Position numbers and translations under genes: made by a program. Below, one piece after another: positions 1 through 24,699 of a stretch of DNA of 64,000 nt; positions within the stretch are counted from its first letter, which is position 1; every line of letters starts with the position of its first letter. The stretch comes from an uncultured Bdellovibrio sp. GTDB taxonomy: Bacteria; Bdellovibrionota; Bdellovibrionia; Bdellovibrionales; Bdellovibrionaceae. The stretch lies in contig CAWVRN010000012.1 in NCBI GenBank assembly GCA_963932905.1, positions 1 to 64,000 of the forward strand, written 5' to 3'. Under the pieces are notes generated by a model. The model saw nothing but the letters and a program-made list of their open reading frames with translations, was not told the DNA's origin and made no database searches.

Positions 1-54
1 CGGGTGGTACACTATGATGGAAATTTACTGGTACATGATGGCGGAAATTCGACA
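1..54. mobile_element. Terminal end of an IS21-family-like insertion sequence (rest lies outside the window)
   Basis: Reverse complement begins TGTCGAATTTCC. Two related 22-nt units (tggtacactatgatggaaattt 5-26; tggtacatgatggcggaaattc 29-50) recur with 24-nt period, as in IS21-family ends. It supplies the last 9 codons of the helicase ORF. Confidence 0.6.
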
Positions 55-3000
55 ATCTAGTACCCTTTTTCTCAAAATTCCATTTTCCGGCGGGACTTGG
101 GGAAGATCATTATTTATCTGTTCTCGAAGATTCACCAACATCTTTTTTAACTCCTGTTTGAAGCTGGTTAGCTTTGAAAAATCGATACGTTCACTTATAT
201 TTATCGCCTTTTTCTCCTGATTTCCCAAGATCGATTCAATTTTTCTAATAACTGATTCGATTTCACGACGCTCGTTACGAAACCAATCCGTCGACCATAT
301 TCTGTGAATCTTCCAACCAAGCTTTTCGAGATTCTCTTGTCTCAGGCGATCTCGGTCTCTTGCTGATTTTGAAGAATGGTAGGTGGCTCCGTCGCATTCA
401 ATGCCCAAAATAAATTCTCCAGGCTTAGTAGGATTTTGAATTCCAATATCCAAGTAATAACCCGCAACCCCTACTTGTGCTTTTACCATATAGCCTCGGC
501 GCTCTAACGCATTAGCTACAGACATCTCAAATGGACTGTCGAAACTTCGTCCCGTTTCTAAGATGGACGTCTTCAGTTCGCCGGTCTCTGCAAACTCCAG
601 AAAATCGCGTAGTGCGTTTGCTCCCCTCGAACTATTCGCAGGAATTAGTCCGGGTTCAAATGAACAGAAGACTTCCATTCGCTCCTTAGCTCGCGAAAAG
701 AGTACATTCAGTCTTCTATATCCATTTTTGCTGTTTATGGGTCCGAACCTCAAGTGGAACGCTCCAACTTTGTCTCGACCGTAAGTTACGGAAATAAAAA
801 TAACGTCCTTCTCGTCCCCTTGAACACTTTCAAGATTTTTAACAAAGAATTCTTCTGAAGTTCCTTCATCTCCATTTACAAACCTGGAGAGAATTGGATC
901 AGATTTACATTCATTATAAAGTAGATCATCGATAAGTTCCTTTTGAGCAATATTCATCGTTACCACCCCAAGAGACCGTCGCGAATGTCGATGCGCATGA
1001 TCCTTAACTGCTGAAACAACCGCTTGTGCTTCTATAAGATTCTTTCCGCTTCCCTCATAAATCCCGCTCGGAATCTTTCTCAATTTAACACCAAGATCTT
1101 CGTGTTTAGCAGTGGCAGAAGGAAAAAGTACTAAATCGTTGTCATAAAATTGCGAATTTGAAAAAGCTATTAGCGATTCGTGTTTGCTTCGATAGTGCCA
1201 GCGCAATCTTCTGGCTGGACGGAACGTACCCGCGGCTTGCTCCAAAATGCTCTCAAATTCTTCCTCTACGTCTTCTGAGTCCTCCATGTTAGAATCAAAG
1301 AATGAAGTTGGCGGAAGCTGTTTTGTATCGCCAACCACCACTACCTGTTTAGCACGAGCGATTGCGCCAAAAGCGTCTTCCGGTTTAATTTGCGACGCCT
1401 CGTCTATTACGACGAGATCAAAGTCAATTACCCCTGGGGGCAGAAACTGAGCTACTGTAAGCGGACTCATCATAAAGCATGGTTTAAGGGCCTGTAAAGC
1501 ATCTCCAGATCGCTTAACAAGCTGTCGAAGCGGAATGTGTCTTTGAACTTTTTCAACTTCTCGTTCAATTAAAGCCAATTGGGTCCAAGTACCTCTCTTT
1601 CCGGTAGAGTTTCCTTTAGGTACAATCTGTCTTGACAGCTGATATGCGATTTCAGTCCGATTTAAATTTATCAGTTCTTTGTCCAAAGTTCTAAATTTTT
1701 CCCGAACTAACTCATGGCGACCGCTATCAAAGTAACTAAGAGAATTGTTTTTCGCTATGTGATTATGTAAAACTGACCTATAAAAAATAAACTCGCAGAG
1801 TGTTCTTAGGCCATTTGGATTAGTAGGTATCTTAGTAATTTTTGGTATTACACTAGCGTAGATCGTGGAGTTTAACTTCTCACGAATTTCGACATAATTT
1901 TCGTATTCATAAAGAGTTTCTTTATTTTCAAGAGCTCGTTCGATAGCTTCTGCAAACTTGCAAAACCCGACAGCTTCGATATCAAATCTTAAAATTCCTA
2001 AGTCGTTACAAAACTTGAAGACCTCAAGCCGCGCATTTTGAATATCCGTTAGCTCCAATTCGAAAGTATTCAGGAAGGAGATTGTTTTAGGCGAGAAGAA
2101 TTGATTCTCTTCGGTTTCATTTATTTCGAAACCCTTTATTTTTTCTACATAAGCAATTAACGAATTCAATTCAGACAATAGCTTAACCGGTTCTGTTGTG
2201 GAAAAATGGAATCTTTCATAGGACTCGCTAGCGGAATCCACTTTAGTTTTTAATTCGCCATACTGAACTACTATTTCCAACGGTTCGCGAATGTCTGAGA
2301 GGCGATATTCCATCAACTTCGCAGTCAAATTCCACTTGAAAAATTTCTCAAGTTTTTCTTTCGTAATCGCTAAGCTTGTTATTAAAGAATTAGTTTCCAC
2401 AAATTTCGGGCGAGCAATTTTAAGTTGGATCAAACTTTTTTCCGAAGCCACAACCAGCTCAACGAAGCTAGGTGATACCTTCTCACAAATACCAAGACGT
2501 TTTAGTGTTGAGGGTACTAAGTCCTCAGAGGCGCCCATTTTACCAAACAAATTATGAATCTCTTTCAAATCACTGATTCTAACTAGTAGGTCGTGTAAAT
2601 TGGCGGTACTTATTTCCGACTGATGCTGGGCAAGTTTAATGAAAATTGGCTTCTGCTCAATTTCTGACTTAAATATTAAATATTGTCTAAGTTTGTTTAA
2701 TGCGACTGAGTTTTTAGAATAAGATAAATCCGAACTGTCGATCAAGTTCCGCTTCAACCAATCTCTTGCTTCGCTATATTTCTTAATAAATAGACAATTG
2801 AACCAATTGGCGCTTTGCAAATTATTTAATTTCTCGATAACCTGGTCCATATTGTATTCGAAAGTAGTACTTAGAAAAACCCCTTCAATGGAGTTCTTTA
2901 AATCGATATTTCGGTGTACCAAGTCAGACAATTCACGAACTGATATAGAGTCGGGCAAAAATAGTAAAGATTGTTCTAATTTTTCAGGATAGTTCCTAAC

Positions 3001-9129: not shown

Positions 9130-9299
9130 ACAAAGCAATCCTAACCTTACTTAAAATAAAACTTAAACAATTAAGCACATTTAAAATGAAAAGTCGAAAC
9201 AGTACAAAATGGATCGCACTTGAAGACATGATGAAAAAAAACAAAGAACGACATCTATATCAGAACTTATTAGGAGACTACAAATATGAACCCACTTAA
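9108..9299 (+). CDS. Small basic hypothetical protein
   Basis: Overlaps both neighbours in the operon; TTG start with agga SD. Confidence 0.4.
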   Translation: MEKNDLINKAILTLLKIKLKQLSTFKMKSRNSTKWIALEDMMKKNKERHLYQNLLGDYKYEPT

Positions 9300-9711
9300 A
9301 GAAATTTTAGAAACACACATGGATAAAATGAAACCAATAAAACTTTATCGGTTTCAAATATTCACAAAAGACAATGAAAAAAATAAAACGGTAGGTATGG
9401 CGTACTTAAAGGAAGGGCAAGGTATATACACCCTTCGCCTTTGGACATTTTTAGAGTACAAGTACTTTCTTCTTCCGAGCAAAGAAGATTCTTCAAAATT
9501 TTTGCTCATGACAAGAGAACTGAACAAATCAGCCTCAGCAAAAAACAAATACTTTTGGAATATCGTCGGAAATGCCCATGTCATTGTTGAAAAAAATGTA
9601 ATTGAACTAAATTTCGATCTTTTTGAAAAGAAAATATATATGAGCATTTTTCCCGAAGAGACAACGAATTCGTTAAGACAGCCATCTTTGAAAACAATGG
9701 ACGAGGCTTAA
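9286..9711 (+). CDS. Hypothetical protein heading the transfer operon (weakly DUF736-like)
   Basis: SD aggag; two VG.A motifs (KTVGMAYL, NIVGNAHV). Confidence 0.6.
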   Translation: MNPLKEILETHMDKMKPIKLYRFQIFTKDNEKNKTVGMAYLKEGQGIYTLRLWTFLEYKYFLLPSKEDSSKFLLMTRELNKSASAKNKYFWNIVGNAHVIVEKNVIELNFDLFEKKIYMSIFPEETTNSLRQPSLKTMDEA

Positions 9712-9731
9712 AAGGTAAGGAGGACATTTTT

Positions 9732-10019
9732 ATGAATAAAAAGAATATGGTACTGACGATTGCAATTGCAACAGCAGTTGGCCTAATGATGCCGGAATTA
9801 GCACATGCTGGGTTAGAATCAAGCTTAACAGGCATTAAATCAAAACTCACAGGGGTTATCCTCCCGTTATTATCTGTAATCGGAATCGCGATTGCTGGTA
9901 TTTCTTTTTTTACGGGAAATCCAAACGCAAAACAGCACATTTTCTATTCGATCATCGGCTGCATAATTGGTTTCGGGGCACAAGGCATCGTTGACTTTAT
10001 TGCACAAACGGTTCGCTAG
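9732..10019 (+). CDS. virB2: TrbC/VirB2-family conjugative pilin
   Basis: Signal peptide ending AHA, two hydrophobic helices, first gene before VirB3/VirB4. Confidence 0.85.
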   Translation: MNKKNMVLTIAIATAVGLMMPELAHAGLESSLTGIKSKLTGVILPLLSVIGIAIAGISFFTGNPNAKQHIFYSIIGCIIGFGAQGIVDFIAQTVR

Positions 10020-10027
10020 GAGAAAAA

Positions 10028-10360
10028 ATGGAAGAAGAAGGACTTATCACCACGCGAGTGCCACGGGCACTCGAAATCAAAAGTAAACTCTTTGGGTACG
10101 AACTTTCAGATCTGCTTCTAATATTTTTCAATCTTGCGATCACTAACCTTATGTTTGGTGGAACTTCATTCCGCTATCCACTTGTTTGGGGAACAACGCT
10201 TTTTTTAGTGTTGTTCCTCTATTTCGCAAAAAAGGGTCGACCCGACAATTACATTCAACACTTAGGTGAGTTTCTAGTGCGTCCTGCTTATTATGCGGCC
10301 GGCGGAGTAGATCACTTTTATCGAAAATTTAAAGGAAAAGTAAAATATGTTTCAAAATAA
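10028..10360 (+). CDS. virB3: VirB3/TraL-like inner-membrane protein
   Basis: Two TM segments, KKGRPDNY motif, sits between pilin and VirB4. Confidence 0.7.
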   Translation: MEEEGLITTRVPRALEIKSKLFGYELSDLLLIFFNLAITNLMFGGTSFRYPLVWGTTLFLVLFLYFAKKGRPDNYIQHLGEFLVRPAYYAAGGVDHFYRKFKGKVKYVSK

Positions 10361-12866
10361 AAAGTCAGAAGCTTCTCTTTGCGAGGAGATTCCATACTGG
10401 GAATTTCAGGACGGAAAACTTCCGCATTTGGTTTTAACCGACGGATCGCTAGTCGCCGGGTTAAAACTATCACTCATCGACATTGAATGTTTTGATGACC
10501 AACAAATCAATCAACTGGCAATTAGGCTGCGTGGCATTTTAAATTCAATTTCAGAAAATACCACTGTTCAATTTTGCCTATCGGTCGGTTCTGATTACTC
10601 CGAAATTTTACAAAAGCATTCTAAAAGTAAAATCGAATCGATTCATCCCCTCGTGGCAAGTATAGCTGAGTATCGCGAAAATAATTTGAAAACCTCTATT
10701 GATTCATCGGAGCTCTATAGACCAGAACTTTCTATTTATCTTAGAACGCAAATGGTTGTCGGTAAAAAGCTGAATTTTTTAAAAAAAGATGAAGAATTCT
10801 CTAACAATGCAGCCAAAAATTATGATGAAACGCTAGAGACACTTTTTCAGAATATAGAAACACTTGCCTCCTCGTTTTCGTCTATCAATCTTCAATCCAG
10901 GGTTTTGGAAGTAAATGAGGTGCAGACTCAAATTTACAGATCGCTCAATCCCAAACGCTCTAAAACTGAACCGGCACCGGCTGTCAATTCGCCACAAAAC
11001 GACAACCTTGAGCATCGGGTTCTAATGGACATGGATTGGCTTGCAGAGCAATCACCTCGTGAACAAATGGTTTTTGGAGATTTAATTTTAGGATTTGAGC
11101 AATTTACGCTTGATTCAACTCATCACAGAATAGTCACCCTTAAAACGCTACCAGAAGTCACGTTTGCGGGACAGCTTTCAACTTTTTTACGGATGCCGTT
11201 TCACTATGATTTAATGCTTTCGTTTGAAATTCCAAATCAAGCCGATGAAATGTCTAAACTTAAACAAACACGAAATAGGGCGCATTCTTTAGCGGCAACA
11301 ACTGGAAACAAGGCAAGCGATCTAGAAAGCGAATCAAAACTTGGCGCCACTGAAGAGCTGATCAGAGAGCTATTAAATACTGGGCAAAGGGTGTATGCGG
11401 CTCAGTTGAGTGTCATTCTTCGCGCGCCTGCGACTCAAGAAGGAAACAAAAGACTCAATCGCGAGGTCCGCGAAGTGCTTTCTCGCATTCGCTCCCTACA
11501 GGGAGCAGAAGGCCTTGAAGAAACGGTCGGTTCCTGGAAAATTTTTAAAGGGAATCTTCCAGCAGCCCCAGTAAAACTTGAAAGAGCTAAAAAGTTTAAA
11601 ACGAACAACTTGGTCGATTTTATACCCATCTATGGCCCACGCGAAGGTGACGACGATCCCGCTGTGATATTTAGGAACAGACTAAATGGACTTGTTAGTT
11701 TCAATCCTTTTGATTCTAAACTCACAAATTACAATGCCTTGGTGACTGGATCATCAGGAGCGGGAAAGAGTTTTTTGAACAATTGCATTCTTGCACAGGA
11801 ACTTGCTCGCGGACTTCGAGTTTTTATTATTGATATCGGTGGATCATATAAAAAACTAACCGAAGCACTTGGTGGACAGTACCTAGAAATGGATTTATCC
11901 GATAGGTACAGAATAAATCCGTTTGATATTCCCGACTACGCGCAGGAGCCAAGCAGTCAAAAAATTAAGTCACTTCTTGCCGTGATTGAATGCATGGTCG
12001 CCGAGGACGAGAAAAGTAAGCTTTCTAAGTTAGACCGCGTGCTCTTGGAAAAAGCCGTTATTGAACTCTATGAAGAAAAGAAAAAGCAAAAAACTATTCC
12101 TATTCTATCCGAGCTTGCCGATAAACTGGCAAAAAGCAAAGAATCATCAATGGTTGCAATTTCTAAACTCCTTTTCATGTGGACTGGAAACAGACCCTAC
12201 GGAAAGCTTCTTGATGGAATGGGTTCCCTAAGGACAAATGCTCCGATTTGCACCTTCGACCTGAAAGGGCTGTCAAGCTATCCCGATCTTCAAAGCGTGA
12301 TGATCTTGATCCTAACAGATTTCATTTTAAGTCAGGTGGAACAAGATAAGGTGAACAAAAAACGTATCATCTTGGACGAAGCTTGGCAGCTTTTGAAATC
12401 AAGTGCCGCAGCTGATTTTATGGAGTACTGCGCTCGAACCCTTCGAAAAACAGGATCAGGAATTACATTCATTACCCAAGGCATTGAAGAAATCGTCCAA
12501 AGTCCAATTGGCTCTGCAATTATGAATAATACTGCGACAAAGTTTATTCTTCTACAGCGTGGCGATGCCGAAGTTTTAAGAAATGCACTTAAGCTCAATA
12601 AACAAGAATTGAATCTAATTTCATCGCTTGAACAGCGCAAAGGTGAATTCTCTGAAGCCTTTTTAATTGAGGGCGATCATCGGCAGGTCATCCGAGTTTA
12701 TCCAAGTCCGTTCGAATATTGGCTATCAACGTCCGATGCTTCAGATAACCGGCATATTCAATCTTTACAGGAACAAGGAATGTCACTCGTAGCAGCCATT
12801 GAGAAAGCCGCTCGAACTTACCGCAATGGGATTGCTCAAGGAAAGACGGATTCGGAGACTACATGA
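10347..12866 (+). CDS. virB4: VirB4/TraC-family T4SS ATPase
   Basis: Walker A GSSGAGKS; IIDIGGSY; INPFD; Walker B ILDEAW; RTLRK.G...FITQ. Confidence 0.95.
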   Translation: MFQNKKSEASLCEEIPYWEFQDGKLPHLVLTDGSLVAGLKLSLIDIECFDDQQINQLAIRLRGILNSISENTTVQFCLSVGSDYSEILQKHSKSKIESIHPLVASIAEYRENNLKTSIDSSELYRPELSIYLRTQMVVGKKLNFLKKDEEFSNNAAKNYDETLETLFQNIETLASSFSSINLQSRVLEVNEVQTQIYRSLNPKRSKTEPAPAVNSPQNDNLEHRVLMDMDWLAEQSPREQMVFGDLILGFEQFTLDSTHHRIVTLKTLPEVTFAGQLSTFLRMPFHYDLMLSFEIPNQADEMSKLKQTRNRAHSLAATTGNKASDLESESKLGATEELIRELLNTGQRVYAAQLSVILRAPATQEGNKRLNREVREVLSRIRSLQGAEGLEETVGSWKIFKGNLPAAPVKLERAKKFKTNNLVDFIPIYGPREGDDDPAVIFRNRLNGLVSFNPFDSKLTNYNALVTGSSGAGKSFLNNCILAQELARGLRVFIIDIGGSYKKLTEALGGQYLEMDLSDRYRINPFDIPDYAQEPSSQKIKSLLAVIECMVAEDEKSKLSKLDRVLLEKAVIELYEEKKKQKTIPILSELADKLAKSKESSMVAISKLLFMWTGNRPYGKLLDGMGSLRTNAPICTFDLKGLSSYPDLQSVMILILTDFILSQVEQDKVNKKRIILDEAWQLLKSSAAADFMEYCARTLRKTGSGITFITQGIEEIVQSPIGSAIMNNTATKFILLQRGDAEVLRNALKLNKQELNLISSLEQRKGEFSEAFLIEGDHRQVIRVYPSPFEYWLSTSDASDNRHIQSLQEQGMSLVAAIEKAARTYRNGIAQGKTDSETT

Positions 12867-13573
12867 TTATAAAGAAAAAAATCGTAGCATTTACTTTCTG
12901 CTTACTTTTCCTTTTGCCAAAACCTGCGAAGGCAGATCTTTTCGGCGGTGATGTCACAGTCCTAGTCCAAATTTTAGCTCAATCGATCAAGCAGCTCTAT
13001 GAGCTTCAACGGATTGTTAGCACTGGACAGAATACACTTTCATTGATGCGCGATTTAAATCGTGGGATACGAGATGGACTAACGATAATACGAATTATTA
13101 ATCCGAAGTTCAATCCAGGTCTTTATGGCAGTTTAGAAACCGCAGATCAGGTTCAAAGAGCAATCGAAAACTTATATGGAGCGATTCCTCAAACGAGTGA
13201 ATATCGCCTGCAAGCAGCACAGGACAAATCAGTGGCTGAAAGTATTGCCATGAATGGCACTCTTTTTCAGTACGCAGATAGTGTTGACGCTGAAACGAAA
13301 AGAATAATTGATCATGCTCAAAAGGTAAGTCCACAGGGAGCAGGAAAACTCACAGCCGAGTCTATCGCGGTCTTAATTGGCGTTACCACGCAAGTCCTAC
13401 GGACGAACTCTATGATGCTAAAAATGATGGGTCAAAACATGGCCCTCTCAAACAGAAAAGAAAAACTCCAGGCGACCCAGTTTAAAACTCAATACGAAGG
13501 TATTTCCAATGCACTAGGAGCATTACCGAGGGAAACAACATTAAGCCCGCTTAACTCAGGTTTAGGGAGGTAG
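12863..13573 (+). CDS. VirB5/TrbJ-like secreted helical T4SS protein
   Basis: Signal peptide (AKA-DLFGGD), coiled-coil, position between VirB4 and VirB6. Confidence 0.6.
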   Translation: MIIKKKIVAFTFCLLFLLPKPAKADLFGGDVTVLVQILAQSIKQLYELQRIVSTGQNTLSLMRDLNRGIRDGLTIIRIINPKFNPGLYGSLETADQVQRAIENLYGAIPQTSEYRLQAAQDKSVAESIAMNGTLFQYADSVDAETKRIIDHAQKVSPQGAGKLTAESIAVLIGVTTQVLRTNSMMLKMMGQNMALSNRKEKLQATQFKTQYEGISNALGALPRETTLSPLNSGLGR

Positions 13574-13574
13574 T

Positions 13575-14465
13575 TTGCCACAATTTGAACTTCTAGGATC
13601 ACTTGCTCGTGACCTTCATCAAGAGTTTGTGAATATGTACTATCTATTTTTTCCTGTGTTCTTTGCACTTGCAGTTGTCGTGGCCTGGTTTCGTTCGCCT
13701 TCGGGAAGTCCAGAATTTATAGATATTGTGAAACGAGCAGTTATTGCAACCGTATTACTTGCTGCATTTCCTGATATTGCCAATGCGATTTTATTCGTTA
13801 CTGAAGGAGTGGTAGAGAAAATTGATAAACTAAATAGCCTCGACACACTGATAAGGATGGCTCAGGAAAAGTCTGAAGGCTATTCGGCATCTGCAACTAG
13901 CGTGATCTTGCAGTTTAATGACCTGATCGTTTCTACATTGTCATTTCTAAGTTACTTGATCCTGTATGTTGCCCGCTATTTGACGATAGCCATGTACCAC
14001 TTTTTTTGGGTGTTCTATTTGATTTCGGCTCCCCTACTCTTGTTGTTCAATCTTTTCGAGGGGACTCAGCAGATCACAGTTAATCTATTTAAAGGAATGA
14101 TTGAGGTCGCTTGCTGGAAAATTGTGTGGGCCATTCTAGGCGCTATGCTAGCAGCTCTTTCATTCGGGGATGCCTATCGAACTGAAGGAAGCTATCTCGT
14201 TTTAATTGTGATGAATCTTGTGATCGCTATTGCCATGCTGATGACTCCATCCATTGTGAAATCACTCGTCGGAAGCGGAATCCAGTCCATGTCCACAGCC
14301 ATTGGTGCTGCTAGTGTGGCTGCGATGGCAGCGGCGCCTGCAAGGGCCGCGACCGCGGCTTCGACATCAAGAAATGCGGTTAGCACCGCCGGAAATTTTG
14401 TTCAATCGCGAGTAAGGTCTTATCGAGAAAAACAAGAGCAAAAACGAAAAATGTACAATTACTAA
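13575..14465 (+). CDS. virB6: VirB6/TrbL-like polytopic membrane protein
   Basis: About 6 TM helices and an Ala-rich C-terminal tail; operon position. Confidence 0.7.
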   Translation: MPQFELLGSLARDLHQEFVNMYYLFFPVFFALAVVVAWFRSPSGSPEFIDIVKRAVIATVLLAAFPDIANAILFVTEGVVEKIDKLNSLDTLIRMAQEKSEGYSASATSVILQFNDLIVSTLSFLSYLILYVARYLTIAMYHFFWVFYLISAPLLLLFNLFEGTQQITVNLFKGMIEVACWKIVWAILGAMLAALSFGDAYRTEGSYLVLIVMNLVIAIAMLMTPSIVKSLVGSGIQSMSTAIGAASVAAMAAAPARAATAASTSRNAVSTAGNFVQSRVRSYREKQEQKRKMYNY

Positions 14466-14476
14466 ATAGGAAAAAT

Positions 14477-15067
14477 ATGGAAACTACGAAAATTACTAAG
14501 CTAACCACCTCTCCCATGCCAAAATTGTTTGGATACCTGATTCATTCAAACCAACTACTGAAAGTATTCTCACTTGTATTGCTTGGAGCCACCCAACTAA
14601 TGCTTGTCGCCGTGATTGTGATGGCCACAAGAGAACCAACAGTAGTCACCCTAAATGCCGAAGGAAAAGACTTCGAAAGAACCGCTCTGCCCAAAGCCGA
14701 AGATCAAATTCGAGAAGGTATAAGACGCTATCTCGAAAAACGTTACCAATGGCAGCCCGAAAATGTGACTAAAAAATTTAAAGAATCCGAGGAATTTATT
14801 TCTCCAAAATCTTTAAAGGCATTTCAGGGAGCCGTCGCAAATGTTGCGAAATTTTCTGTAGACAAAATAGTTTCTCAAAGAGTTTATCCCGAGAAAATTG
14901 AAATTGATTTAAAAAAACAAATAGCCACTATCACCGGAGACCGACTAACGACGATCCAAGGTTTGAAGGCGGCTGGAAATCTTAAAATCGAGCTGACTTT
15001 TGAATACGGCCCAAGAACATCAGCAAATCCTTGGGGACTATATATCTCAAAAGAACGCGAAGAATAG
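14477..15067 (+). CDS. VirB8/TraE-like bitopic protein
   Basis: One N-terminal TM; C-terminal RTSANPWGLYI resembles the VirB8 NP.GL motif. Confidence 0.7.
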   Translation: METTKITKLTTSPMPKLFGYLIHSNQLLKVFSLVLLGATQLMLVAVIVMATREPTVVTLNAEGKDFERTALPKAEDQIREGIRRYLEKRYQWQPENVTKKFKESEEFISPKSLKAFQGAVANVAKFSVDKIVSQRVYPEKIEIDLKKQIATITGDRLTTIQGLKAAGNLKIELTFEYGPRTSANPWGLYISKEREE

Positions 15068-15080
15068 GACAAAGGCAATT

Positions 15081-15818
15081 ATGAAGACCCTATTATTATC
15101 AATTTTAGCAATCTGTTTTGTAGCGATAGAACTTAAGGCGGCCCAGAGAGTCCGCCGAGTCCCTATTCAAACAGATCAAATTGCAACTGTAAGAACTAGT
15201 CTTGGTATTGCAACGATTATTCAAGTTCCAGATCGCCCCACCAGCGTGGTCGTTGGCGATCAGAATTCTTTTAAAGTTGAATACCTAGATCAAGCAATCA
15301 CAATAAAACCAACTGTAGGAGGAGCTAAAAGTAATCTCTACATTTATACCGATTGGAAACGATTTAACGTGGAACTTATTTCCGGACCGGAATCGGTTGC
15401 AGACTATGTAGTTTATCTCGACATCCCGAAGGACAAACCGCAGAAGACACGATCAAGCAAAGATGCGGACGTAAAATGGACCGAATTTAAAAATCAGGTT
15501 CGGAATGAAAACCTGACTTTCACCGTTACCCGTCTTGGACGAACAAGTGACAGAATTTTACTGATTGATTTTATGATCTCATCCACAAAAAAAGAAATAT
15601 TTAGGCCGGAAAGTATATGGTTAACTCAAAGTGGAAAAACGCGTCCGATTCACAACTTATTTCTATCTTCTGTCGAAGTGAGTCCTAGAAAACCGATTCC
15701 AGGTGTCCTGCAAATCAAGGAAGTCGACATTAAAACGAATGAGTCTTTTAAACTTGAAATAAGAAGAGCAAAAAAATCCTATCTTACCATTCACAAAGTA
15801 GCGGATTGGAAACTGTAA
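15081..15818 (+). CDS. virB9: VirB9/TrbG/TraK-like outer-membrane core protein
   Basis: Signal peptide from ATG 15081; TIIQVPDRPTSVVVGD...ITIKP...SNLYIYT. Confidence 0.75.
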   Translation: MKTLLLSILAICFVAIELKAAQRVRRVPIQTDQIATVRTSLGIATIIQVPDRPTSVVVGDQNSFKVEYLDQAITIKPTVGGAKSNLYIYTDWKRFNVELISGPESVADYVVYLDIPKDKPQKTRSSKDADVKWTEFKNQVRNENLTFTVTRLGRTSDRILLIDFMISSTKKEIFRPESIWLTQSGKTRPIHNLFLSSVEVSPRKPIPGVLQIKEVDIKTNESFKLEIRRAKKSYLTIHKVADWKL

Positions 15819-15835
15819 TAAAACGGGGAGTAAAT

Positions 15836-16792
15836 TTGGATATAAAAAACTATTTTCTTACTGAAGCTAAACCATTCACAACAAAACGTGAAGTTCATTG
15901 GAACAGAATTCAAACCTGGGCGATTATTTTTATTGCCCTCTCGGTTTTAGGCCTCCTTCTGATCCCGAGTTCAGATCCAGATCAAGAACGTTTTCATGAA
16001 AAAGCAGAGCGAGGAAGTTTGAATCAAATGAAACAAATCGAAAATGATCCTACTCAAGAGACAATTAGACAGCTTCAAGAATCACAAGTAAGCCTAAAGC
16101 AAGTTCACGAATCGATTGATTATCTTTATCGGCCAGATGCCTTTGATGGCGGTAACCCTGGAAAAAGTGGTCAGGATCGAAGCTCTTCAATGATTCTAAA
16201 TCGTGAAGGACCAGATGAACGCACTCAGCTTTTGGCTGGAACCAGAATATCGATTCGACTATCCGACAAAGTAACAATAGCAAATCACGGGATGCCGGTT
16301 ATTGGGATTATTTCTCAAAATGTTAATAATGATAATGAGATAGCTATTCCTATTGGATCTAAGGTTCTTGGAGATGCTTCATTTGATCCTGATTCTGAAA
16401 GAGCTACAATTATTTGGCGATCCATTGTTTTTCCTAACGGAAGGCAAAGACCATTTTCTGCCATCGGTGTTGGTCGAGACGGACAAGTTGGAGTGATTGG
16501 CCGGGTTCACTCCGACGGCGCAAAAAATATGGTTGGCCAAACCCTCACGCGATTTGTTGGCGCCTATGCAGCCGGTTCAATGACCACAGGTGCCTTAGGA
16601 GCAAATGAAGGCGGGAATGATAACGGTCTTCGTAATGCCGTCGCACAAACAGCTACTGATCGAGCCAATGCTATGGGCGAAGAACTCCAGAAGGAACGAA
16701 AGTGGATTGAACTAGAAAATGGAACCGAAACATACGCTGTCCTAAATCTACCATTTACTTTTAGAGATGCCGGAGTGACTAGTGGACAATGA
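15836..16792 (+). CDS. virB10: VirB10/TrbI-like core protein
   Basis: TTG with SD ggggag; TM; LLAGTRI...IPIGSKVLG...DGQVGVIG. Confidence 0.8.
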   Translation: MDIKNYFLTEAKPFTTKREVHWNRIQTWAIIFIALSVLGLLLIPSSDPDQERFHEKAERGSLNQMKQIENDPTQETIRQLQESQVSLKQVHESIDYLYRPDAFDGGNPGKSGQDRSSSMILNREGPDERTQLLAGTRISIRLSDKVTIANHGMPVIGIISQNVNNDNEIAIPIGSKVLGDASFDPDSERATIIWRSIVFPNGRQRPFSAIGVGRDGQVGVIGRVHSDGAKNMVGQTLTRFVGAYAAGSMTTGALGANEGGNDNGLRNAVAQTATDRANAMGEELQKERKWIELENGTETYAVLNLPFTFRDAGVTSGQ

Positions 16793-18398
16793 GAACAACC
16801 ATTCAGACCATGCCGACAAAATCATTTTCATCACAGCAGCGCTGTTGTTACTTGGAAAGTGGCTTGAGTTTTCTTGGTCATGGGTGATCAAGTCACCAAT
16901 TCATATGGCCATGGTTGCAGGTCCTTTGATTCTACTGACATTTTTTTCAGTTAAAATTGCTTGGAGCAAAATCAGAAAAAACATGGATAACCGCAAGTTC
17001 GAAAAAACGATCACATCAATAGACGCTGACTCAGCATTTTGTGGGACGACTGACAAAAATGAAGATATTTGGATTAAGCCGCGCCAACGGGCAATGCACA
17101 CTCAGGTTATCGGTACCACTAACGCCGGTAAAACTGAAAGTGTGATATTACCTTGGGCGATTCAGGATATACATTCCGGAAAAGGACTTCTCCTCATTGA
17201 TGGAAAAGCCGACAACTCATTAATTGACAAATTATGGGCCTATACCAAATTGGCCGGACGCGAAAAAGATTTCAAACTTTTTAGTTTGAGTCGTAGAGAA
17301 CAGTCGTTTCAGTTTAATCCCTTACTTGGTGGAACCGCCGAAGAAATCACAGAGAGAGTCTTCAACGCATTTGAATTTGAAAATCCATACTATCGAAGCC
17401 TGCAATATGAAGTGATGAACCAAGTTATGCGTATTTTCGAATCCGCAAATTGTGTTCCCACTTTTCAAAGACTCCACCAAGCAATTTCCCGTCCCAGAAT
17501 CATGGAGGAAATGGTTAAGTCATTCCAAGATCAAGAGGTGCGCCGCTGGTATCTATCATTTAGTGAGATGACACAAAAAGATCGAGAAGAACGCACAAGT
17601 GGTCTTTTGTCGGCTATCGGTCAATTTGCTTTCGGTGAAAATGCAAAACTTTTTAATCCCGAGACGGACGCAATTACAATTGATGAAGCGCTAGGTGCAA
17701 ACCAGATTGTTTACTTTCAGCTCCCTGTTTTGCTATCACCTTTCTTAGGCAAAGCAACAGGGAAACTAGTTCTTCAGTCACTACAGGCGGCCGTAGCCAA
17801 TAGACATAGATTGGCCCAAGGAAAAGAGAAGAAATTTTTTAGTGTTTTCTTAGATGATTTTTCTGAGTACCTCTATGAAGGATTTGTCTCGATTCTGAAC
17901 AAATCACGATCGGCCAATGTAGGAATTGTGTTCGCTCATCAAGCTTTAGGAGACATTACCGTTCTTGGAGATTCAGTCGCAAACTCGATTCTAACAAATG
18001 CTAACATCAAAGTATTAATGCGAGGTAATGATCCCGATTCGGCAGAATACTTTTCAAAAGTCATTGGGACATTGACTGCCACTAAGACTACCGAACGTCA
18101 GACCAAAAGCCTATTTGGAACTAGAAAAAGCGGTGAAATGTCAGCGAGAGAGGCTGAGGAGTTCGCCATTCACCCCAATGTCTTCAAAAAAGATTTGGGT
18201 GTTGGCGAAGCTATAATGATTGTGCCCCATGAAAGGGGATCAAAAACTGTGCGAATCAAATTTAGTAAAACTGATGATCTAGACGTACAAACTCTACCCA
18301 TAATCAGGAAAACATTGATGCCATTGCTTGATGAAAAAGACGATCTACAAAAACAAACAACCAAAAACAGAAATAGTGACCTCGACAATGCAACTTAA
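16782..18398 (+). CDS. virD4: Type IV coupling protein (TraD/VirD4/TraG family)
   Basis: Two N-terminal TMs; HTQVIGTTNAGKT; IDGKAD; FNPL; FLDDF; KSRSANV. Confidence 0.9.
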   Translation: MDNENNHSDHADKIIFITAALLLLGKWLEFSWSWVIKSPIHMAMVAGPLILLTFFSVKIAWSKIRKNMDNRKFEKTITSIDADSAFCGTTDKNEDIWIKPRQRAMHTQVIGTTNAGKTESVILPWAIQDIHSGKGLLLIDGKADNSLIDKLWAYTKLAGREKDFKLFSLSRREQSFQFNPLLGGTAEEITERVFNAFEFENPYYRSLQYEVMNQVMRIFESANCVPTFQRLHQAISRPRIMEEMVKSFQDQEVRRWYLSFSEMTQKDREERTSGLLSAIGQFAFGENAKLFNPETDAITIDEALGANQIVYFQLPVLLSPFLGKATGKLVLQSLQAAVANRHRLAQGKEKKFFSVFLDDFSEYLYEGFVSILNKSRSANVGIVFAHQALGDITVLGDSVANSILTNANIKVLMRGNDPDSAEYFSKVIGTLTATKTTERQTKSLFGTRKSGEMSAREAEEFAIHPNVFKKDLGVGEAIMIVPHERGSKTVRIKFSKTDDLDVQTLPIIRKTLMPLLDEKDDLQKQTTKNRNSDLDNAT

Positions 18399-20555: not shown

Positions 20556-20759
20556 ATGGCCAATCAAAGCGCTAAAAACAACAAAGCGCAACATGACCAT
20601 TTGCCAAAAATTATTTTGATTCCTTCTCAAAACAGTAAAATTGACGGTCATAAAAAGTCGGAAGAAATCCTATACTACCTCACGCAGATAATTCTTCTTT
20701 CAGACAAAAAAGGCAGACCATCAAAAAATCAATTTCCAGAGGTGCAAGATGCCATTTAA
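20556..20759 (+). CDS. Small protein overlapping the recombinase start (directionality-factor candidate)
   Basis: ATG 20556 with SD ggag; 67 aa; KKGRP motif. Confidence 0.55.
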   Translation: MANQSAKNNKAQHDHLPKIILIPSQNSKIDGHKKSEEILYYLTQIILLSDKKGRPSKNQFPEVQDAI

Positions 20760-22554
20760 AATAGGTGCCTATGTGCGAGTCAGCACAGAAGAACAAGCCA
20801 ACATTGCCGACGGATCAATTGATTCTCAACAGCACAGATTAAAAGCCTATCTTGATCTTAAAAACCACCAAGAAAAAAATTGGGGAAGGATAGTCGATTT
20901 CTATATCGATGACGGCTATTCAGCAAAAGATACAAAACGTCCCGCGTATCAAAAAATGACCCGAGATTTGAGGACTGGAAAAATCAATTTGATTCTTGTG
21001 ACAGATTTATCACGCCTATCAAGAAATATTGCGGACTTCTGTCGGCTACAAGACGAACTCGCTTCATTCAAAGCTAAGTTTCACTCAATAAAAGAGCAAT
21101 TTGATTCAACCTCTCCGTCTGGTGAGATGATGCTTTTCAACCTGATAAATCTAGCCCAATTCGAGCGGAAACAAACATCAGAAAGAGTATCACTTAATTT
21201 TCACTCAAGAGCATTAAGAGGACTATCTAACGGTGGCTGCAATATCCTTGGTTACGATCGCGACCCAGAAAATTCAGGTAAATTTATTGTCAATGAATCA
21301 GAAGCGATAGTTGTTCGTAGAGCATTTGAATTGTATCTAGATTCAAGGAGTCTTGCCGAAACTGCAAGACGACTTCAGGATGAAGGACATCACCCAAAAG
21401 TTCATTCTTTAAAGCGAGCACGGTTGGCGAGGGACGGAAAGTGGACTTTATACTCTGTTCGCACAGTGCTTAAGAATATGGCCTACATTGGCATTCGTGA
21501 GATCAACAAAGACAATAAAAATGTCGATCAAAATGACCTTAAGCCTTGGCAAAGATACGAAATGGTTAAAGCAGCATGGCCAGCCATTGTTTCCAAAGTA
21601 GTTTTCGATGACGCCCAAAAGTCTTTAGATGATGGACTTCGCCTTGAGAAGCAAAGACTAAGCACCGCTGAGACAAGATTTTTCTTACTGTCAGGAATTA
21701 TTCGCTGCGGGGAATGTGGCAAAGCCTTAGTTGGACAAAGTGCACACGGAAAAAGCCAAGTCCATCGTTACTATGGTCATTCTAAAATAGACAAAGGTAA
21801 CAGTAAGCCATGTGCAATTAAGAATCTTAGAGCTGATGCTGTTGAAACAGCACTCTTAAATTATCTGGATGAAATCATAGTCAAATCTGGTCACCTAAAC
21901 CGAATCGAAAAGAATATGAAATCCCACCTGATGACCACTAGTGAAGATTTACGACTAGAAAAGGAAATCAAGGAAAAGGCTTTGCATGATTTAGAAAACG
22001 AAATTGATTCCGTCTTGAAAATTCAATTTTCAATGGAGTCTAAGACTCAGGTTACAAACCTTTTGGCAGAGAAGCTGGAAACCATGGCCGAACAAAGAAA
22101 ACTTTTAAAACTATCTTTGCTCAACATTAAGAACCGACTTGATAGCTCCAACGATGCTAGAGCCTCGAGACTAAACCTTGAAGAAAATCTAGAGAAGTTT
22201 AGGAACGGTTGGAAGAAATCCAACCCAACCGTTCAAAAACGGTTTTTAAGACGTATGATTGATTGTCTCGTTTATACATCTGAAGGGATAAAGACTTTTT
22301 ACCATTTGGATGTTTCTTCGAACTCAGAAAGCCAAAAGAACCAGAAAAAATCGCCAGAATATTTGAACCCGCCGTCCGGATCATTTACGGGGGTAAACCA
22401 ATCGCTTCGGCGATTGGTGGTATCCTCGAACCAGTTGATTAAAAGTTCGTCTGATTTTAAGGATGGTGCGCCCGGAGAGATTCGAACTCCCGACCAATCG
22501 GTTCGAAGCCGATTACTCTATCCAGCTGAGCTACGGACGCGTACAAGCCGATGA
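20749..22554 (+). CDS. Large serine recombinase (resolvase + recombinase + Zn-ribbon + coiled coil)
   Basis: YVRVSTEEQ (catalytic Ser); DDGYSAKDTKRP; DLSRLSR; AQFER; LLSGIIRCGECG. Confidence 0.95.
   Translation: MPFKIGAYVRVSTEEQANIADGSIDSQQHRLKAYLDLKNHQEKNWGRIVDFYIDDGYSAKDTKRPAYQKMTRDLRTGKINLILVTDLSRLSRNIADFCRLQDELASFKAKFHSIKEQFDSTSPSGEMMLFNLINLAQFERKQTSERVSLNFHSRALRGLSNGGCNILGYDRDPENSGKFIVNESEAIVVRRAFELYLDSRSLAETARRLQDEGHHPKVHSLKRARLARDGKWTLYSVRTVLKNMAYIGIREINKDNKNVDQNDLKPWQRYEMVKAAWPAIVSKVVFDDAQKSLDDGLRLEKQRLSTAETRFFLLSGIIRCGECGKALVGQSAHGKSQVHRYYGHSKIDKGNSKPCAIKNLRADAVETALLNYLDEIIVKSGHLNRIEKNMKSHLMTTSEDLRLEKEIKEKALHDLENEIDSVLKIQFSMESKTQVTNLLAEKLETMAEQRKLLKLSLLNIKNRLDSSNDARASRLNLEENLEKFRNGWKKSNPTVQKRFLRRMIDCLVYTSEGIKTFYHLDVSSNSESQKNQKKSPEYLNPPSGSFTGVNQSLRRLVVSSNQLIKSSSDFKDGAPGEIRTPDQSVRSRLLYPAELRTRTSR
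22464..22540 (-). tRNA. tRNA-Arg (anticodon TCG)
   Basis: GCGTCCGTAGCTCAGCTGGATAGAGTAATCGGCTTCGAACCGATTGGTCGGGAGTTCGAATCTCTCCGGGCGCACCA: 77-nt cloverleaf with encoded CCA. Confidence 0.98.
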
Positions 22555-22560
22555 AGGGTC

Positions 22561-22589
22561 AATATACTTCCTTAAAATTCGGGTGTAAA
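22561..22589 (-). promoter_or_regulatory. sigma70-type promoter of tRNA-Arg
   Basis: TTTACA-N17-TATATT on the minus strand, 20 nt upstream of the tRNA. Confidence 0.65.
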
Positions 22590-22720
22590 CCCTAAAAACC
22601 TCTTCCAGTTAAAAATATTGTAAAGGAAATGTTGCGCAAAAATTGGGATACTTGGTGGGTGTTCTACCATAGCGGGCGCAAAGAGGGGGCTAATGGACGT
22701 TGTTCCTGACCAAGCAGTTT

Positions 22721-22987
22721 TTACGCCAAAGGTCGTCGCTTTCTCATCCAATTTGTAAAAAAGATTTTAATTACATTTACATGAGTTTTGCGATGGCTCC
22801 GCTTTTTACGAAAAGACAAAGCCGCCACAGATAACTGATCTGGGTTCATATTGATAAGTCCCAGCTTTTCATCTTGAGTTAGGTCTAAGTCGGCCAATGC
22901 CGCTTGCGCATCAATTTGAAAAAGATCTAGATACGTTTTATCTGTAAGCAATCGGGCGATCGTGTTTTCAAATACGGAATAACTCAT
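22721..22987 (-). CDS. Small helical MNIO-partner protein (NHLP/LigA-like helical pattern)
   Basis: ARLLTDKTYLDLFQIDAQAALADLDLTQDE; overlaps the MNIO stop; SD aagga before ATG 22987. Confidence 0.7.
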   Translation of the reverse strand: MSYSVFENTIARLLTDKTYLDLFQIDAQAALADLDLTQDEKLGLINMNPDQLSVAALSFRKKRSHRKTHVNVIKIFFTNWMRKRRPLA

Positions 22988-23837
22988 TTGAAGTATCCTT
23001 TTCATTGATCAGTTGGTGAATACGCAGCAGTTGTTGTTTCAAAACCGAGCTTGCCGGATAGTTGCCATCGCGTTCTATAATAATAGAAACCGGTTGAGAC
23101 AGTTTTGATAGCGCGTATTTAAGCATTTGAAAACCAATCTCGGGGATGTCTTGTTTGTGATCGTCGAGCATATGGCGAGTGTGTGCGGATTGAATCCATT
23201 TTCCGCCGCTCATGTGAATCTGTTTTACGCGATTAAATGGATAGCGAGCGAGTTCGTGCATGGGGTCCATTTTGAAATTCATGGCGTTGCAGTAAATGTT
23301 GTTAATATCTAATAGCATCTCTTGCTGAGTGGTCGATAGGATATGTTTCATCCAATCTATTTCCGAATAGGTGCTTAATGGTGGGTGCAACAAAGTCGAT
23401 ATGTTTTCAAGAGCAGGCAGGTGACCCAATTCGTTTTTGATATGCCTTAGATTTTTTAATGTTATCGAAATAGTTTCATCGTTCCAAGGCGGCGCCGCTA
23501 AGTGCCCCAATTCGATTCCGCCAGAGCGAACAAAGCTAAAATGATCCGACCAGGATTCGATAGAAAACATATTGAAAAACTTTTTATATTTTTTTAATTC
23601 GTTTTTTGGCAGTGGTTCGCTGCCGCAAATACCAAGACCAACGCTATGAAAATGTAAATTGTAAAGGGTGTTTAAGAACCTTAGAGTTCTTATATCTTTC
23701 GCGGATAAATTATAAAAGTTTTCGACTAGGATTTCTATGTCGTCTATCAAATCTGAATTTTCTAAAATAAAGGCAGCGATTTGCGGTCGCCATCCAATAC
23801 CAACTGTATGTTTAGGCTTAGCTGCCGCAACCACCAC
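22968..23837 (-). CDS. DUF692-family multinuclear non-heme iron oxidative enzyme (MNIO)
   Basis: GIGWR; EILVEN; HSVGL; WSDH; ALEN; LLDINN; QIHMSGG; DDH; IERD. Likely GTG start at 23837 or 23834. Confidence 0.92.
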   Translation of the reverse strand: MVVAAAKPKHTVGIGWRPQIAAFILENSDLIDDIEILVENFYNLSAKDIRTLRFLNTLYNLHFHSVGLGICGSEPLPKNELKKYKKFFNMFSIESWSDHFSFVRSGGIELGHLAAPPWNDETISITLKNLRHIKNELGHLPALENISTLLHPPLSTYSEIDWMKHILSTTQQEMLLDINNIYCNAMNFKMDPMHELARYPFNRVKQIHMSGGKWIQSAHTRHMLDDHKQDIPEIGFQMLKYALSKLSQPVSIIIERDGNYPASSVLKQQLLRIHQLINEKDTSNELFRI

Positions 23838-24699
23838 AGCCCCCTCCGCATCCGCCTCCACAGCCACTACTGCTACAGGAACTGCCGCACGATGACCCGC
23901 ATGACGAGTTCGCGCTGCCAGATTTCAAAGATCTTGCAAATAAGTCTTTAGCATATCCATACGTTTCAACAGGTAAAATCGAAATTCCATGGACAGCTAC
24001 AATCAGTGCCAATTCGTTGGATTCACCTTTGGTTAAATTGCGAAGTCTATACGTAGCATCCTTTAGCAATAATTGCATATTGTCCAGGAACGCAGATCCT
24101 GCGCTTGTGATTTTTTTTGGTGTTAAAAAGTTCATGAAAGCGACCATGATCACTGAAAATATAACAAGAAAACCGACGTTGGTTTTACCACGGTTTAATG
24201 CAATTAAAATTTTTGTTATTGGGATAAAAAGCAAAACACCGTAGCCAACAAATAAAAGCGTATTCTTGGTGGATTTGGCTTTGCCTGCATAGAAATAGTC
24301 CTTGGCCTCTAACACGTCTATATAGGGACGTGTGCAGGCGTACACTTGACTGTCTTCAATAATATCTTCGATCCGTTTTGGTTCTTGAGTGCTGCGTATG
24401 ATTTCTACTTCGAGCGGCTTTTTAACAAAATCCTTGGCATTTTCTGTGGATTTTAAATACTCACCATCACTGACAATCAAAAGGCCGCGCTCGATGAGCG
24501 AAATGATGGCAACCCGAATGACTTCGGGTTCTTCACCTCGAAGGCAAGCAATTGTATAAGGGTCTTTTAACATTTCATGCCCAGATATTTTTGATGGACT
24601 GACGGCGCGCAAAAGAATGCGGACTGTGATTATCCAGCACAAGCCAAAGAAACCATAAAACACTAAAAATTCAGGACCTTTCCAATCAAACGGGTTCAT
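23818..24699 (-). CDS. TIGR04222-like integral membrane protein with Cys/Gly/Ser-rich C-terminal tail
   Basis: MNPFDWKGPEFLVFY; DPY.IA.LRG; RGK.NVGFL; ends SSCGSSCGSSCSSSGCGGGCGGGCGGCGS. Confidence 0.88.
   Translation of the reverse strand: MNPFDWKGPEFLVFYGFFGLCWIITVRILLRAVSPSKISGHEMLKDPYTIACLRGEEPEVIRVAIISLIERGLLIVSDGEYLKSTENAKDFVKKPLEVEIIRSTQEPKRIEDIIEDSQVYACTRPYIDVLEAKDYFYAGKAKSTKNTLLFVGYGVLLFIPITKILIALNRGKTNVGFLVIFSVIMVAFMNFLTPKKITSAGSAFLDNMQLLLKDATYRLRNLTKGESNELALIVAVHGISILPVETYGYAKDLFARSLKSGSANSSCGSSCGSSCSSSGCGGGCGGGCGGCGS

Follow-up and report, generated by a model that had tools for sequence, protein, structure and literature searches.

Serine integrase gene and its tRNA target

The stretch analysed here (the window) covers positions 1 to 64,000 of contig CAWVRN010000012.1 (C12) from an uncultured Bdellovibrio sp. 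(GCA_963932905.1), and our subject is a serine integrase gene in it that runs into a tRNA gene at one end of a genomic island. An open reading frame (ORF) of 601 amino acids (aa) at 20749..22554 on the plus strand encodes a large serine recombinase (LSR), which is referred to as Int-short, the form present in the integrated state. Pfam analysis identified a resolvase-type catalytic domain (Resolvase PF00239, residues 7-157, E 2e-30), a Recombinase domain (PF07508, residues 184-294), and a zinc ribbon (Zn_ribbon_recom PF13408, residues 313-373). ARAGORN found only one tRNA gene in the window, a 77-base tRNA-Arg(TCG) at 22464..22540 on the minus strand, and no other tRNA with a TCG anticodon in the assembly. 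Base 22464 is the third base of codon 572 of the integrase ORF, so that the entire tRNA (77 bases) and 11 nt of its leader, in antisense, encode residues 573-601 (29 aa) ahead of a TGA stop at 22552-22554. A sigma-70-like site upstream of the tRNA matched the consensus at 10 of 12 positions and, on this consensus match alone, would start tRNA transcription beside the integrase stop.

An original prediction, made from the letters of the window, had described an integrase ORF that stays open to the tRNA, takes its last 29 codons from the antisense of the tRNA and its leader, and stops at 22552-22554 beside a promoter-like site, and all of this was confirmed. Its further proposal, that the attachment (att) site lies inside the integrase ORF and that the integrated and excised forms differ at their C-termini, is supported by the identity blocks and the attP arm symmetry presented below. 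It also raised the hypothesis that convergent transcription of the tRNA might silence the integrase gene. The crossover was placed within the first 6 nt from the tRNA 3' end, at 22464-22469 (codons 572-574), a placement based on the blocks of identity that attL shares with attR and on how symmetric the arms of the rebuilt attP are; it thus falls inside the integrase ORF rather than outside it. To judge by these junctions, tRNA-Arg(TCG) is the attB, and the element now provides the final 4-6 nt of the gene. The tail was accordingly found to be host-derived for 27 residues past the predicted crossover, not for all of the roughly 29 that had been proposed. The symmetry centre lies between 22468 and 22469, which gives a predicted central dinucleotide of GC.

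Homology of the integrase to its paralogues and orthologues stopped at codons 516-519 in most matches (identity mostly 42-50%, minimum 33%), and the same end, at about codon 519, was found against a distant 615-aa protein from genome G003. Beyond codon 519, the tail is of low complexity and little conserved between subfamilies. In the window, it contains no stop codon in the integrase frame vs three in each of the other two frames. Folding of 22380-22470 (minus strand) gave z = -4.8 relative to shuffled sequences, and the stem-loop within this region (Table 1), which the terminator scan did not call because of its weak T-run, is a possible element-supplied terminator of tRNA transcripts.

Integrase tails in related genomes

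The integrase family proved to be multi-copy, with 50 matches in nine of ten genomes of the genus. We retrieved 20 integrase loci, including that of the window. An intact convergent tRNA or tmRNA gene lay just downstream in 13 of them (Arg-TCG, Arg-TCT, Arg-CCT, Met, Val, Leu, and tmRNA), while the other seven comprised two with a truncated tRNA remnant, two with a frame continuing into a further module (X, described below), and three at contig ends. With three loci added later (L018, L090, and L099), the integrase ORF entered the tRNA or tmRNA in 16/16 loci with an intact gene; none of these homologues stopped ahead of the tRNA, the finding that would have pointed to chance loss of a stop codon. 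Across 15 loci, the region from the end of homology to the tRNA contained no stops in 1029 codons of the integrase frame, vs 55 and 90 in the other two frames, and because of this difference the open frame up to the tRNA is judged to be not a product of chance, but a sequence feature under constraint.

The depth to which the frame extends into the tRNA or tmRNA varied: it crossed the whole gene in five of the 16 loci (the window included), stopped at 70 nt in two, and ended 22 nt in, at a T-loop TGA, in the other nine. The complete read-through that the original prediction had emphasized is therefore real in the window, but it looks incidental, since its depth is set by the tRNA sequence.

Alignment of 14 junctions on the tRNA 3' end revealed the motif (A/G)GTTCG at -20 to -15 from the tRNA end in most of them. 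This motif is the mirror image of the T-arm sequence CGAAC/TGAAC at +20 to +24 of the tRNA.

Two of the retrieved loci, L033 (G009:C73) and L038 (G009:C119), had integrase tails followed by truncated tRNAs, one consisting of 20 nt of the tRNA-Met 3' end and the other being a tRNA-Val without its first 6 nt; these may be displaced or decayed junctions.

Module X at the far island ends

In L030 and L041, the integrase tails measured 234-238 residues rather than the usual 50-90, and the extra part corresponded to X, a conserved ORF of about 170 codons found at the far end of islands. Pfam matched X to a helix-turn-helix (HTH) and the N-terminal half of the Recombinase domain, and 26 aligned copies were conserved, with invariant and near-invariant columns. 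The AlphaFold model of X (predicted local distance difference test score, pLDDT, 74) had 34 disordered residues at its start, a three-helix HTH, and then a beta-hairpin with helices. Its top Foldseek matches were serine integrase-DNA complexes, with probabilities of 0.99-1.0 and weak E-values (0.02-0.1), a result taken only as agreeing with the Pfam half-domain match. X is thus predicted to be a DNA-binding module of about 130 aa with an HTH and a recombinase-domain-like fold.

A tblastn search with X in the window genome (G000) detected copies at the far ends of islands with already known integrases (Table 1), with at least seven X copies and nine integrase matches in total. X always lay on the integrase strand, which would place it directly downstream of the integrase gene in a circle. 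Its frame usually opens just after a stop codon and starts with a few bases of the partner tRNA 3' end, and a CGAAC-type motif then occurs at +25 to +29. We surveyed start codons in 32 separate near-complete X ORFs from several genera, using profile position ~20 as the cut: an ATG at or before this position was present in 6/32, and neither ATG, GTG, nor TTG was present there in 15/32. In the copy on contig C17, the first ATG, GTG, or TTG is codon 144.

The X profile was detected in 123 of 301 sampled genomes of the phylum, representing 87 of 169 genera. Only four database proteins of 430-1369 aa carry X, and so small a number fits a fusion that is seldom present in assembled chromosomes. One copy, L093 (G135:C1:2990500-2994500), lies in a complete genome of another genus and has an ATG at the start of its open frame, eight codons before the core. 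No integrase of the family was found in that genome (G135) at E 1e-30, and this copy may be independently expressed.

Reconstruction of attP

Joining attL and attR in silico at their common core produced a continuous int-X frame in 7/7 credible pairs. These were C12xC17 in the window genome (Arg-TCG, core of 6 nt), whose ends lie on different contigs, and six pairs each contained in one contig: G000 C1 (Met, 6 nt), G000 C22 (Gln, 6 nt), G003 C153 (Val, 9 nt), G003 C81 (Arg-TCT, 6 nt), G007 C33 (Arg-TCT, 8 nt), and G198 (Met, 8 nt), the last being a complete genome from another genus. The frame at the tRNA end varied across pairs (xxT-GGT or xTG-GTG) and was the same on both sides within each pair. 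A further cross-contig pairing, C43xC4, joined in frame over an 11-nt core; it had asymmetric arms and was left out of the count as doubtful.

The arms of the rebuilt attP sites were mirror images about tRNA position 5.5, that is, between positions 5 and 6. Perfect inverted-repeat arms measured 9 bp in C12xC17, 12 bp in C1, 9 bp in C22, and 13 bp in G007 C33. When a symmetry score was calculated for all attL x attR combinations, the expected partner gave the row maximum in six of seven cases, including one tie. Clean terminator hairpins, as expected of the original DNA downstream of a tRNA, were present in the attR flanks of G003 C153 and G198.

At least one natural counterpart of the rebuilt frame exists: in G001, two islands stand in tandem at tRNA-Met, and an uninterrupted int-X ORF of 782 aa spans the point at which they meet. 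In this array, the integrase of the first island overlaps the tRNA by 22 nt, and the X of that island is fused to the integrase of the second. Further open int-X frames measured 750, 744, 758, and 738 aa.

Far end of the window island

The window begins at base 1 of contig C12, and the other end of the island lies outside it. Direct repeat searches within the window for the far junction returned no repeat of at least 14 nt of 22250-22650 and none of at least 12 nt of the junction region. A genome-wide palindrome scan for a P' arm mirroring the window P arm returned the site itself and background only.

A candidate was located through X homology: C17:78146-78691 is probably the far end (attR, with X) of the window island, on the following sequence comparisons. 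The C17 candidate shares with window 22464-22469 the core TGGTGC and the frame xxT-GGT-GC, and its P' arm carries a perfect 9-bp inverted copy, CAGACGAAC, at the mirror position of the window motif GTTCGTCTG. Against the C9 junction, where another tRNA ends in TGGTGC, the C17 P' arm mirrored only 5 bp. The C12xC17 symmetry score of 19 was the highest of its row (others at most 17) and of its column (others at most 18). At the candidate attR, no more than 6 nt of displaced tRNA are present, and the intact tRNA lies at the island end in the window. The pairing is nevertheless inferred, since the contig ends do not overlap; the far junction and attP that the original prediction had called for were thus obtained as a candidate partner, on another contig, with a continuous frame.

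The rebuilt C12xC17 ORF comprises 733 codons, with residues 1-574 common to both forms. After residue 574, the integrated form has 27 host-encoded residues and the predicted excised form has 159. The two C-termini would therefore differ, as had been proposed, but excision is predicted to add some 159 residues, which carry a conserved DNA-binding module, instead of another short tail.

Comparison with relatives gave additional information on the C17 region. In G003, G005, G006, G008, and G009, the 5' neighbour of the tRNA is a 541-aa RluD/methyltransferase gene, which in the window genome lies at C17:69800-71488, 6.7 kb from the C17 attR. Similarity of the window to five relatives ends about 60 nt upstream of the tRNA (Table 1), and the right flank of the window (from 22798) was found 9 kb downstream of the tRNA in G006. 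This break in synteny fits a single inversion of a block containing the tRNA and the island. G006 also holds a decayed island of the window type at the same tRNA, with a 67-nt P-arm remnant corresponding to window 22397-22463 (91% identity), a truncated X 90% identical to the C17 X, and histidine kinase and SnoaL genes between the P arm and X. Because the island in G006 is decayed, the start of its similarity at 22397 does not mark a junction.

Three other candidates were rejected. The best genome match to the tRNA 3' end (13 nt, on C9) belongs to another tRNA with the same acceptor end, which lies at a contig end next to a P-arm-like motif. The idea that the island had entered a protein gene was discarded, as the window genome has no orthologue of the G006 histidine kinase (best match 51%, partial). 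C40-like genes flank the tRNA in G009, G014, and G024, but C40 itself has no junction. Gene order around tRNA-Arg(TCG) was too rearranged to define an empty site.

The same sequence of about 54 nt ends both G000:C9 and G000:C22, which suggests an assembly-breaking repeat. Its neighbour on C9 is a tRNA-Leu(GAG) with a flanking AGTTCG motif of the P-arm type, and another island of the integrase family is probably present there.

Metagenome contigs

The int-tRNA junction of the window was also detected in contigs from sludge and wastewater metagenomes, several of which break at 22462-22464. One sludge contig matched the P arm exactly up to 22469 and then diverged into 23 nt ending in AAGAAC; the first 16 nt of the divergent sequence were absent from all stored loci and from the window genome. 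Contigs of two sludge runs from one study carried a tail variant lacking 75 nt (25 codons, 22347-22421) with the frame kept. No circle junction matching C17 was present in the metagenome contigs, which as contigs cannot show rare excision products, transcript strand, or RNA levels.

Conjugative element and flanking genes

The positions of the individual features are collected in Table 1. Because type IV secretion genes, a coupling protein, and the integrase occur in one island, the setting of the window is identified from its gene content as an integrative conjugative element. No relaxase family was detected among the 27 window ORFs in the Pfam scan, which did not extend to the part of the island beyond the contig start.

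Table 1. Coordinates of features in the window, and of X copies elsewhere in the window genome
Feature	Position	Strand	Basis or remark
Conjugation genes of the element	9286..18398	+	Pfam
TraC/VirB4-like gene	10347-12866	+	Pfam
TraE-like gene	14477-15067	+	Pfam
CagX/VirB9-like gene	15000-15818	+	Pfam
TrbI/VirB10-like gene	15806-16792	+	Pfam
Type IV coupling protein (T4CP) gene	16782-18398	+	Pfam
Conserved LSR body, codons 1-519	20749..22305	+	Homology to paralogues and orthologues
Linker/tail coding region, codons 520-572, doubling as P arm of the att site	22306..22463	+	
Stem-loop in integrase tail	22398..22417		8-bp stem, 4-nt loop; 47 nt downstream of tRNA 3' end
P-arm half-site motif GTTCGTCTG	22445..22453		Includes family motif (A/G)GTTCG at -20..-15 from tRNA end
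Core TGGTGC, common to attL and candidate attR	22464..22469		Identity block
Host-encoded end of Int-short, residues 575-601 plus third base of codon 574	22470..22551	+	Antisense of tRNA and leader
Promoter-like site 5' of tRNA	22561..22589	-	-35 at 22589-22584, -10 at 22566-22561
Synteny breakpoint	22600..22601		Similarity to five relatives ends
X copy on C1	C1:568591-569097		Island integrase C1:523941-525482
X copy on C22	C22:126-542		Island integrase C22:32634-34175
X copy on C17	C17:78233-78679		Among several further tblastn matches

Near the contig start, at 25-5307 on the minus strand, lies a gene for a 1760-aa protein with DUF4011 and Upf1-like helicase domains (AAA_11, AAA_12) and a C-terminal MTES_1575/DUF559 nuclease domain, which looks like defence-type cargo. 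On the other side of the tRNA, at 22968-24699 on the minus strand, a gene for an MbnB/TglH/ChrH-type enzyme that modifies ribosomally synthesized and post-translationally modified peptides (22968-23867) adjoins a gene for a 293-aa membrane protein with a C-terminus made up of Cys, Gly, and Ser repeats.

Proposed mechanism and alternative explanations

The anatomy of the att sites and their symmetry, the reading frames, and the conservation were all obtained by computation, and the explanation that we favour and consider probable is as follows: attP lies in the part of the LSR gene that encodes the linker, integration at the tRNA-Arg(TCG) 3' end splits the integrase gene, and excision rejoins it in frame. 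The window would then contain the integrase end (attL) of an integrative conjugative element inserted by the LSR at the tRNA 3' end, with attP situated within the integrase ORF, in the flexible-linker part between the canonical recombinase (codons 1-519) and X. The P arm would bring the last tRNA bases and the downstream stem-loop, by which the tRNA would stay whole. On integration, the first 574 integrase codons would be left at attL, running into the tRNA in antisense to a chance stop (27 extra residues), and the X part, which mostly has no start codon, would remain at attR on the opposite side of the island. In an excised circle or a tandem array, the halves would rejoin in frame, giving a predicted 733-aa protein for the window element.

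Translation of the long form would be confined to the excised circle, tandem arrays, and a new host. We infer that the short form carries out excision and that X alters the action of the enzyme, most likely in that it favours or licenses integration or binds DNA of the element. A broader reading remains tentative in our judgement and is put forward as a possibility: recombination direction would be built into the DNA topology of these elements, in that only the circle would encode the long form, whose extra bipartite DNA-binding module would license integration or block re-excision, and the integrated short form would excise. The integrase would in this way switch itself between isoforms, within a widespread clade that uses the universal tRNA/tmRNA T-arm as a half-site.

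Several observations weigh against the split-integrase explanation. The symmetry score was only moderately discriminating (background 13-18, expected pairs 17-21, and two non-partner pairs 20-21), it failed for G003 C81 (14), and the arms of C43xC4 showed no symmetry. The predicted central dinucleotide GC is a palindrome; such a dinucleotide is unusual in serine-integrase sites, and orientation control should be lost with it. An early ATG occurred in 6/32 X ORFs, at codon 0 in one of them, and X was present in three of five complete genomes where no integrase homologue passed E 1e-30; in some cases, X may be expressed alone or partner other recombinases. A related 615-aa LSR in G003 uses the same tRNA without X, and its rebuilt ORF ends two codons past the core; its 22-residue tRNA-antisense tail is therefore nothing more than a by-product of integration, and because of this LSR, splitting cannot be universal among tRNA-targeting LSRs. 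For the window itself, the two island ends lie on different contigs without overlapping ends, the core shared with C17 is only 6 nt, and the divergent 23 nt of the sludge contig resembles a P' arm but is not the C17 sequence. Finally, no excised circle, empty site, or long protein was observed in this computational work on contig sequences.

In the genome with the 615-aa LSR, a remnant at L017 (G003:C116, 2212-2365) nearly matched window 22307-22380 and 22412-22475, that is, the integrase tail and 12 nt of the tRNA end, with unrelated DNA beyond it that carries a HigB/HigA-like gene pair. This remnant has the appearance of the far junction of the island of the 615-aa integrase, superimposed on an older island of the window type.

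The alternative that survives best, although we regard it as unlikely, accepts the split-gene family and disputes only the partner: C17 would not be the far end of the window island, the true attR being unassembled or lost, or the island stranded. The lack of overlap between C12 and C17, the short core, and the sludge contig that joins the same P arm to a different sequence would all be accommodated by this alternative, and a genome with at least seven X copies and nine integrase matches offers other partners, while a large inversion is needed to align C17 with C12. Set against these points are the 9-bp mirror repeat at exactly the symmetric distance, the position of C12xC17 at the top of both its row and its column in the symmetry matrix (19 vs at most 17 and 18), the X remnant in G006, 90% identical, at the same tRNA, and the conserved tRNA neighbour gene 6.7 kb away on C17.

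Less probable still is chance read-through, in which the integrase would end near codon 520-575, its stop would have been lost, and X would be an unrelated neighbouring gene. The absence of stops from 1029 tail codons (55 and 90 in the other frames) is difficult to reconcile with this explanation, even though the tail past codon 519 is of low complexity and poorly conserved between subfamilies, and even though the ORF past the crossover depends on the tRNA sequence, with the T-loop TGA stop at 22 nt in 9/16 loci. Seven of seven credible pairs joined in frame with matched frames, for which the chance expectation is about (1/3)^7, and a fused int-X ORF occurs naturally in a tandem array, although the 615-aa type in G003 does without X. 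Likewise, the six X ORFs of 32 with an early ATG would suit an independent gene, while the other 26 have none.

The remaining explanation, insertion of the island downstream of the tRNA near 22397 with an ORF that merely crosses host DNA, is very improbable: G006, which has no integrase at this tRNA, matches 22397-22600 at 91% and differs to the left of 22397, but it also has a truncated X 3 kb away and so represents a decayed island and not an empty site. In G008 and G009, similarity to the window is lost at the tRNA 3' end or no more than about 20 nt from it, and the breaks in several metagenome contigs are at 22462-22464 or 22469, never at 22397. The spacing between the family P-arm motif and the tRNA end is, moreover, fixed in most loci.

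Comparison with known systems

In logic, the nearest analogue of the split integrase is the SSV-type tyrosine integrase, followed by integration-dependent immunity. SSV1 and SSV2 likewise target a tRNA gene and have their att site within the integrase gene, which is interrupted by integration and restored by excision; PMC5861418 describes such interruption as unique to the fusellovirus SSV-type family. SSV-type integrases are tyrosine recombinases of archaeal viruses, whereas the enzyme described here is an LSR of bacterial conjugative elements, with serine recombinase domains only in Pfam. A second difference is that the whole canonical recombinase would stay at attL here, and only an extra C-terminal module would be detached, mostly without a start codon.

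The mycobacteriophages BPs, Brujita, and Charlie share with our element an attP in the 3' coding part of a gene, overlapping a tRNA attB. PMC9262239 reports that integration alters the C-terminus of the repressor and thereby its behaviour in these phages. In that system, the split gene encodes a repressor, the integrase is of the tyrosine type, the core is about 35 bp, and a degradation tag is removed. Here, by contrast, the gene that is split would encode the serine integrase, cores measure 6-11 bp, and the C-terminal change would amount to a loss or gain of about 159 residues that include a folded module. Neither predicted integrase C-terminus ends in an LAA-like tag.

By enzyme family, the window integrase is itself a typical LSR. 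Canonical LSRs (phiC31, Bxb1, A118/LI, and TP901-1) have the same domain order, and X resembles their recombinase domain. Their att sites are short, with inverted-repeat half-sites to which the 9-13 bp mirror repeats of the rebuilt attP sites may correspond. In our sites, the motif is displaced outward by 5 bp in attP relative to attB (CGAAC at +25..+29 in P' arms vs +20..+24 in the tRNA), and structural work on the LI integrase reportedly led to a rule for such attP/attB motif spacing. To our knowledge, attP lies outside the integrase gene in the known canonical LSRs, and their targets are protein-coding or intergenic. Serine integrases were not known to target tRNA genes according to PMC4383910 (2014), and PMC9262239 assigns tRNA sites among mycobacteriophages to tyrosine integrases. 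Islander-type tDNA islands likewise carry a tyrosine-family integrase, in place of which Pfam identified the serine family here. In the open-access literature, we found no report of a tRNA-targeting, self-split serine integrase family, and one may have been published elsewhere.

In engineered fusions of integrases with recombination directionality factors, a C-terminal module fused to a serine integrase sets the direction of recombination. Those fusions are artificial, whereas the one proposed here would be made and broken by recombination itself.

Significance

For the insertion of large DNA, serine integrases are the principal tools, and how to control their direction is a central problem yet to be solved. 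If the proposed explanation is true, a C-terminal module attached and detached by recombination itself would be a new mode of direction control. The explanation would likewise do away with the working rule, stated in PMC4383910 in 2014, that tRNA genes are targets of tyrosine integrases only, a rule built into island finders whose tRNA searches are limited to these enzymes. Within the family, it would explain both the gene-called integrases with odd tRNA-antisense tails and the orphan, start-less "recombinase-like" ORFs at island ends.

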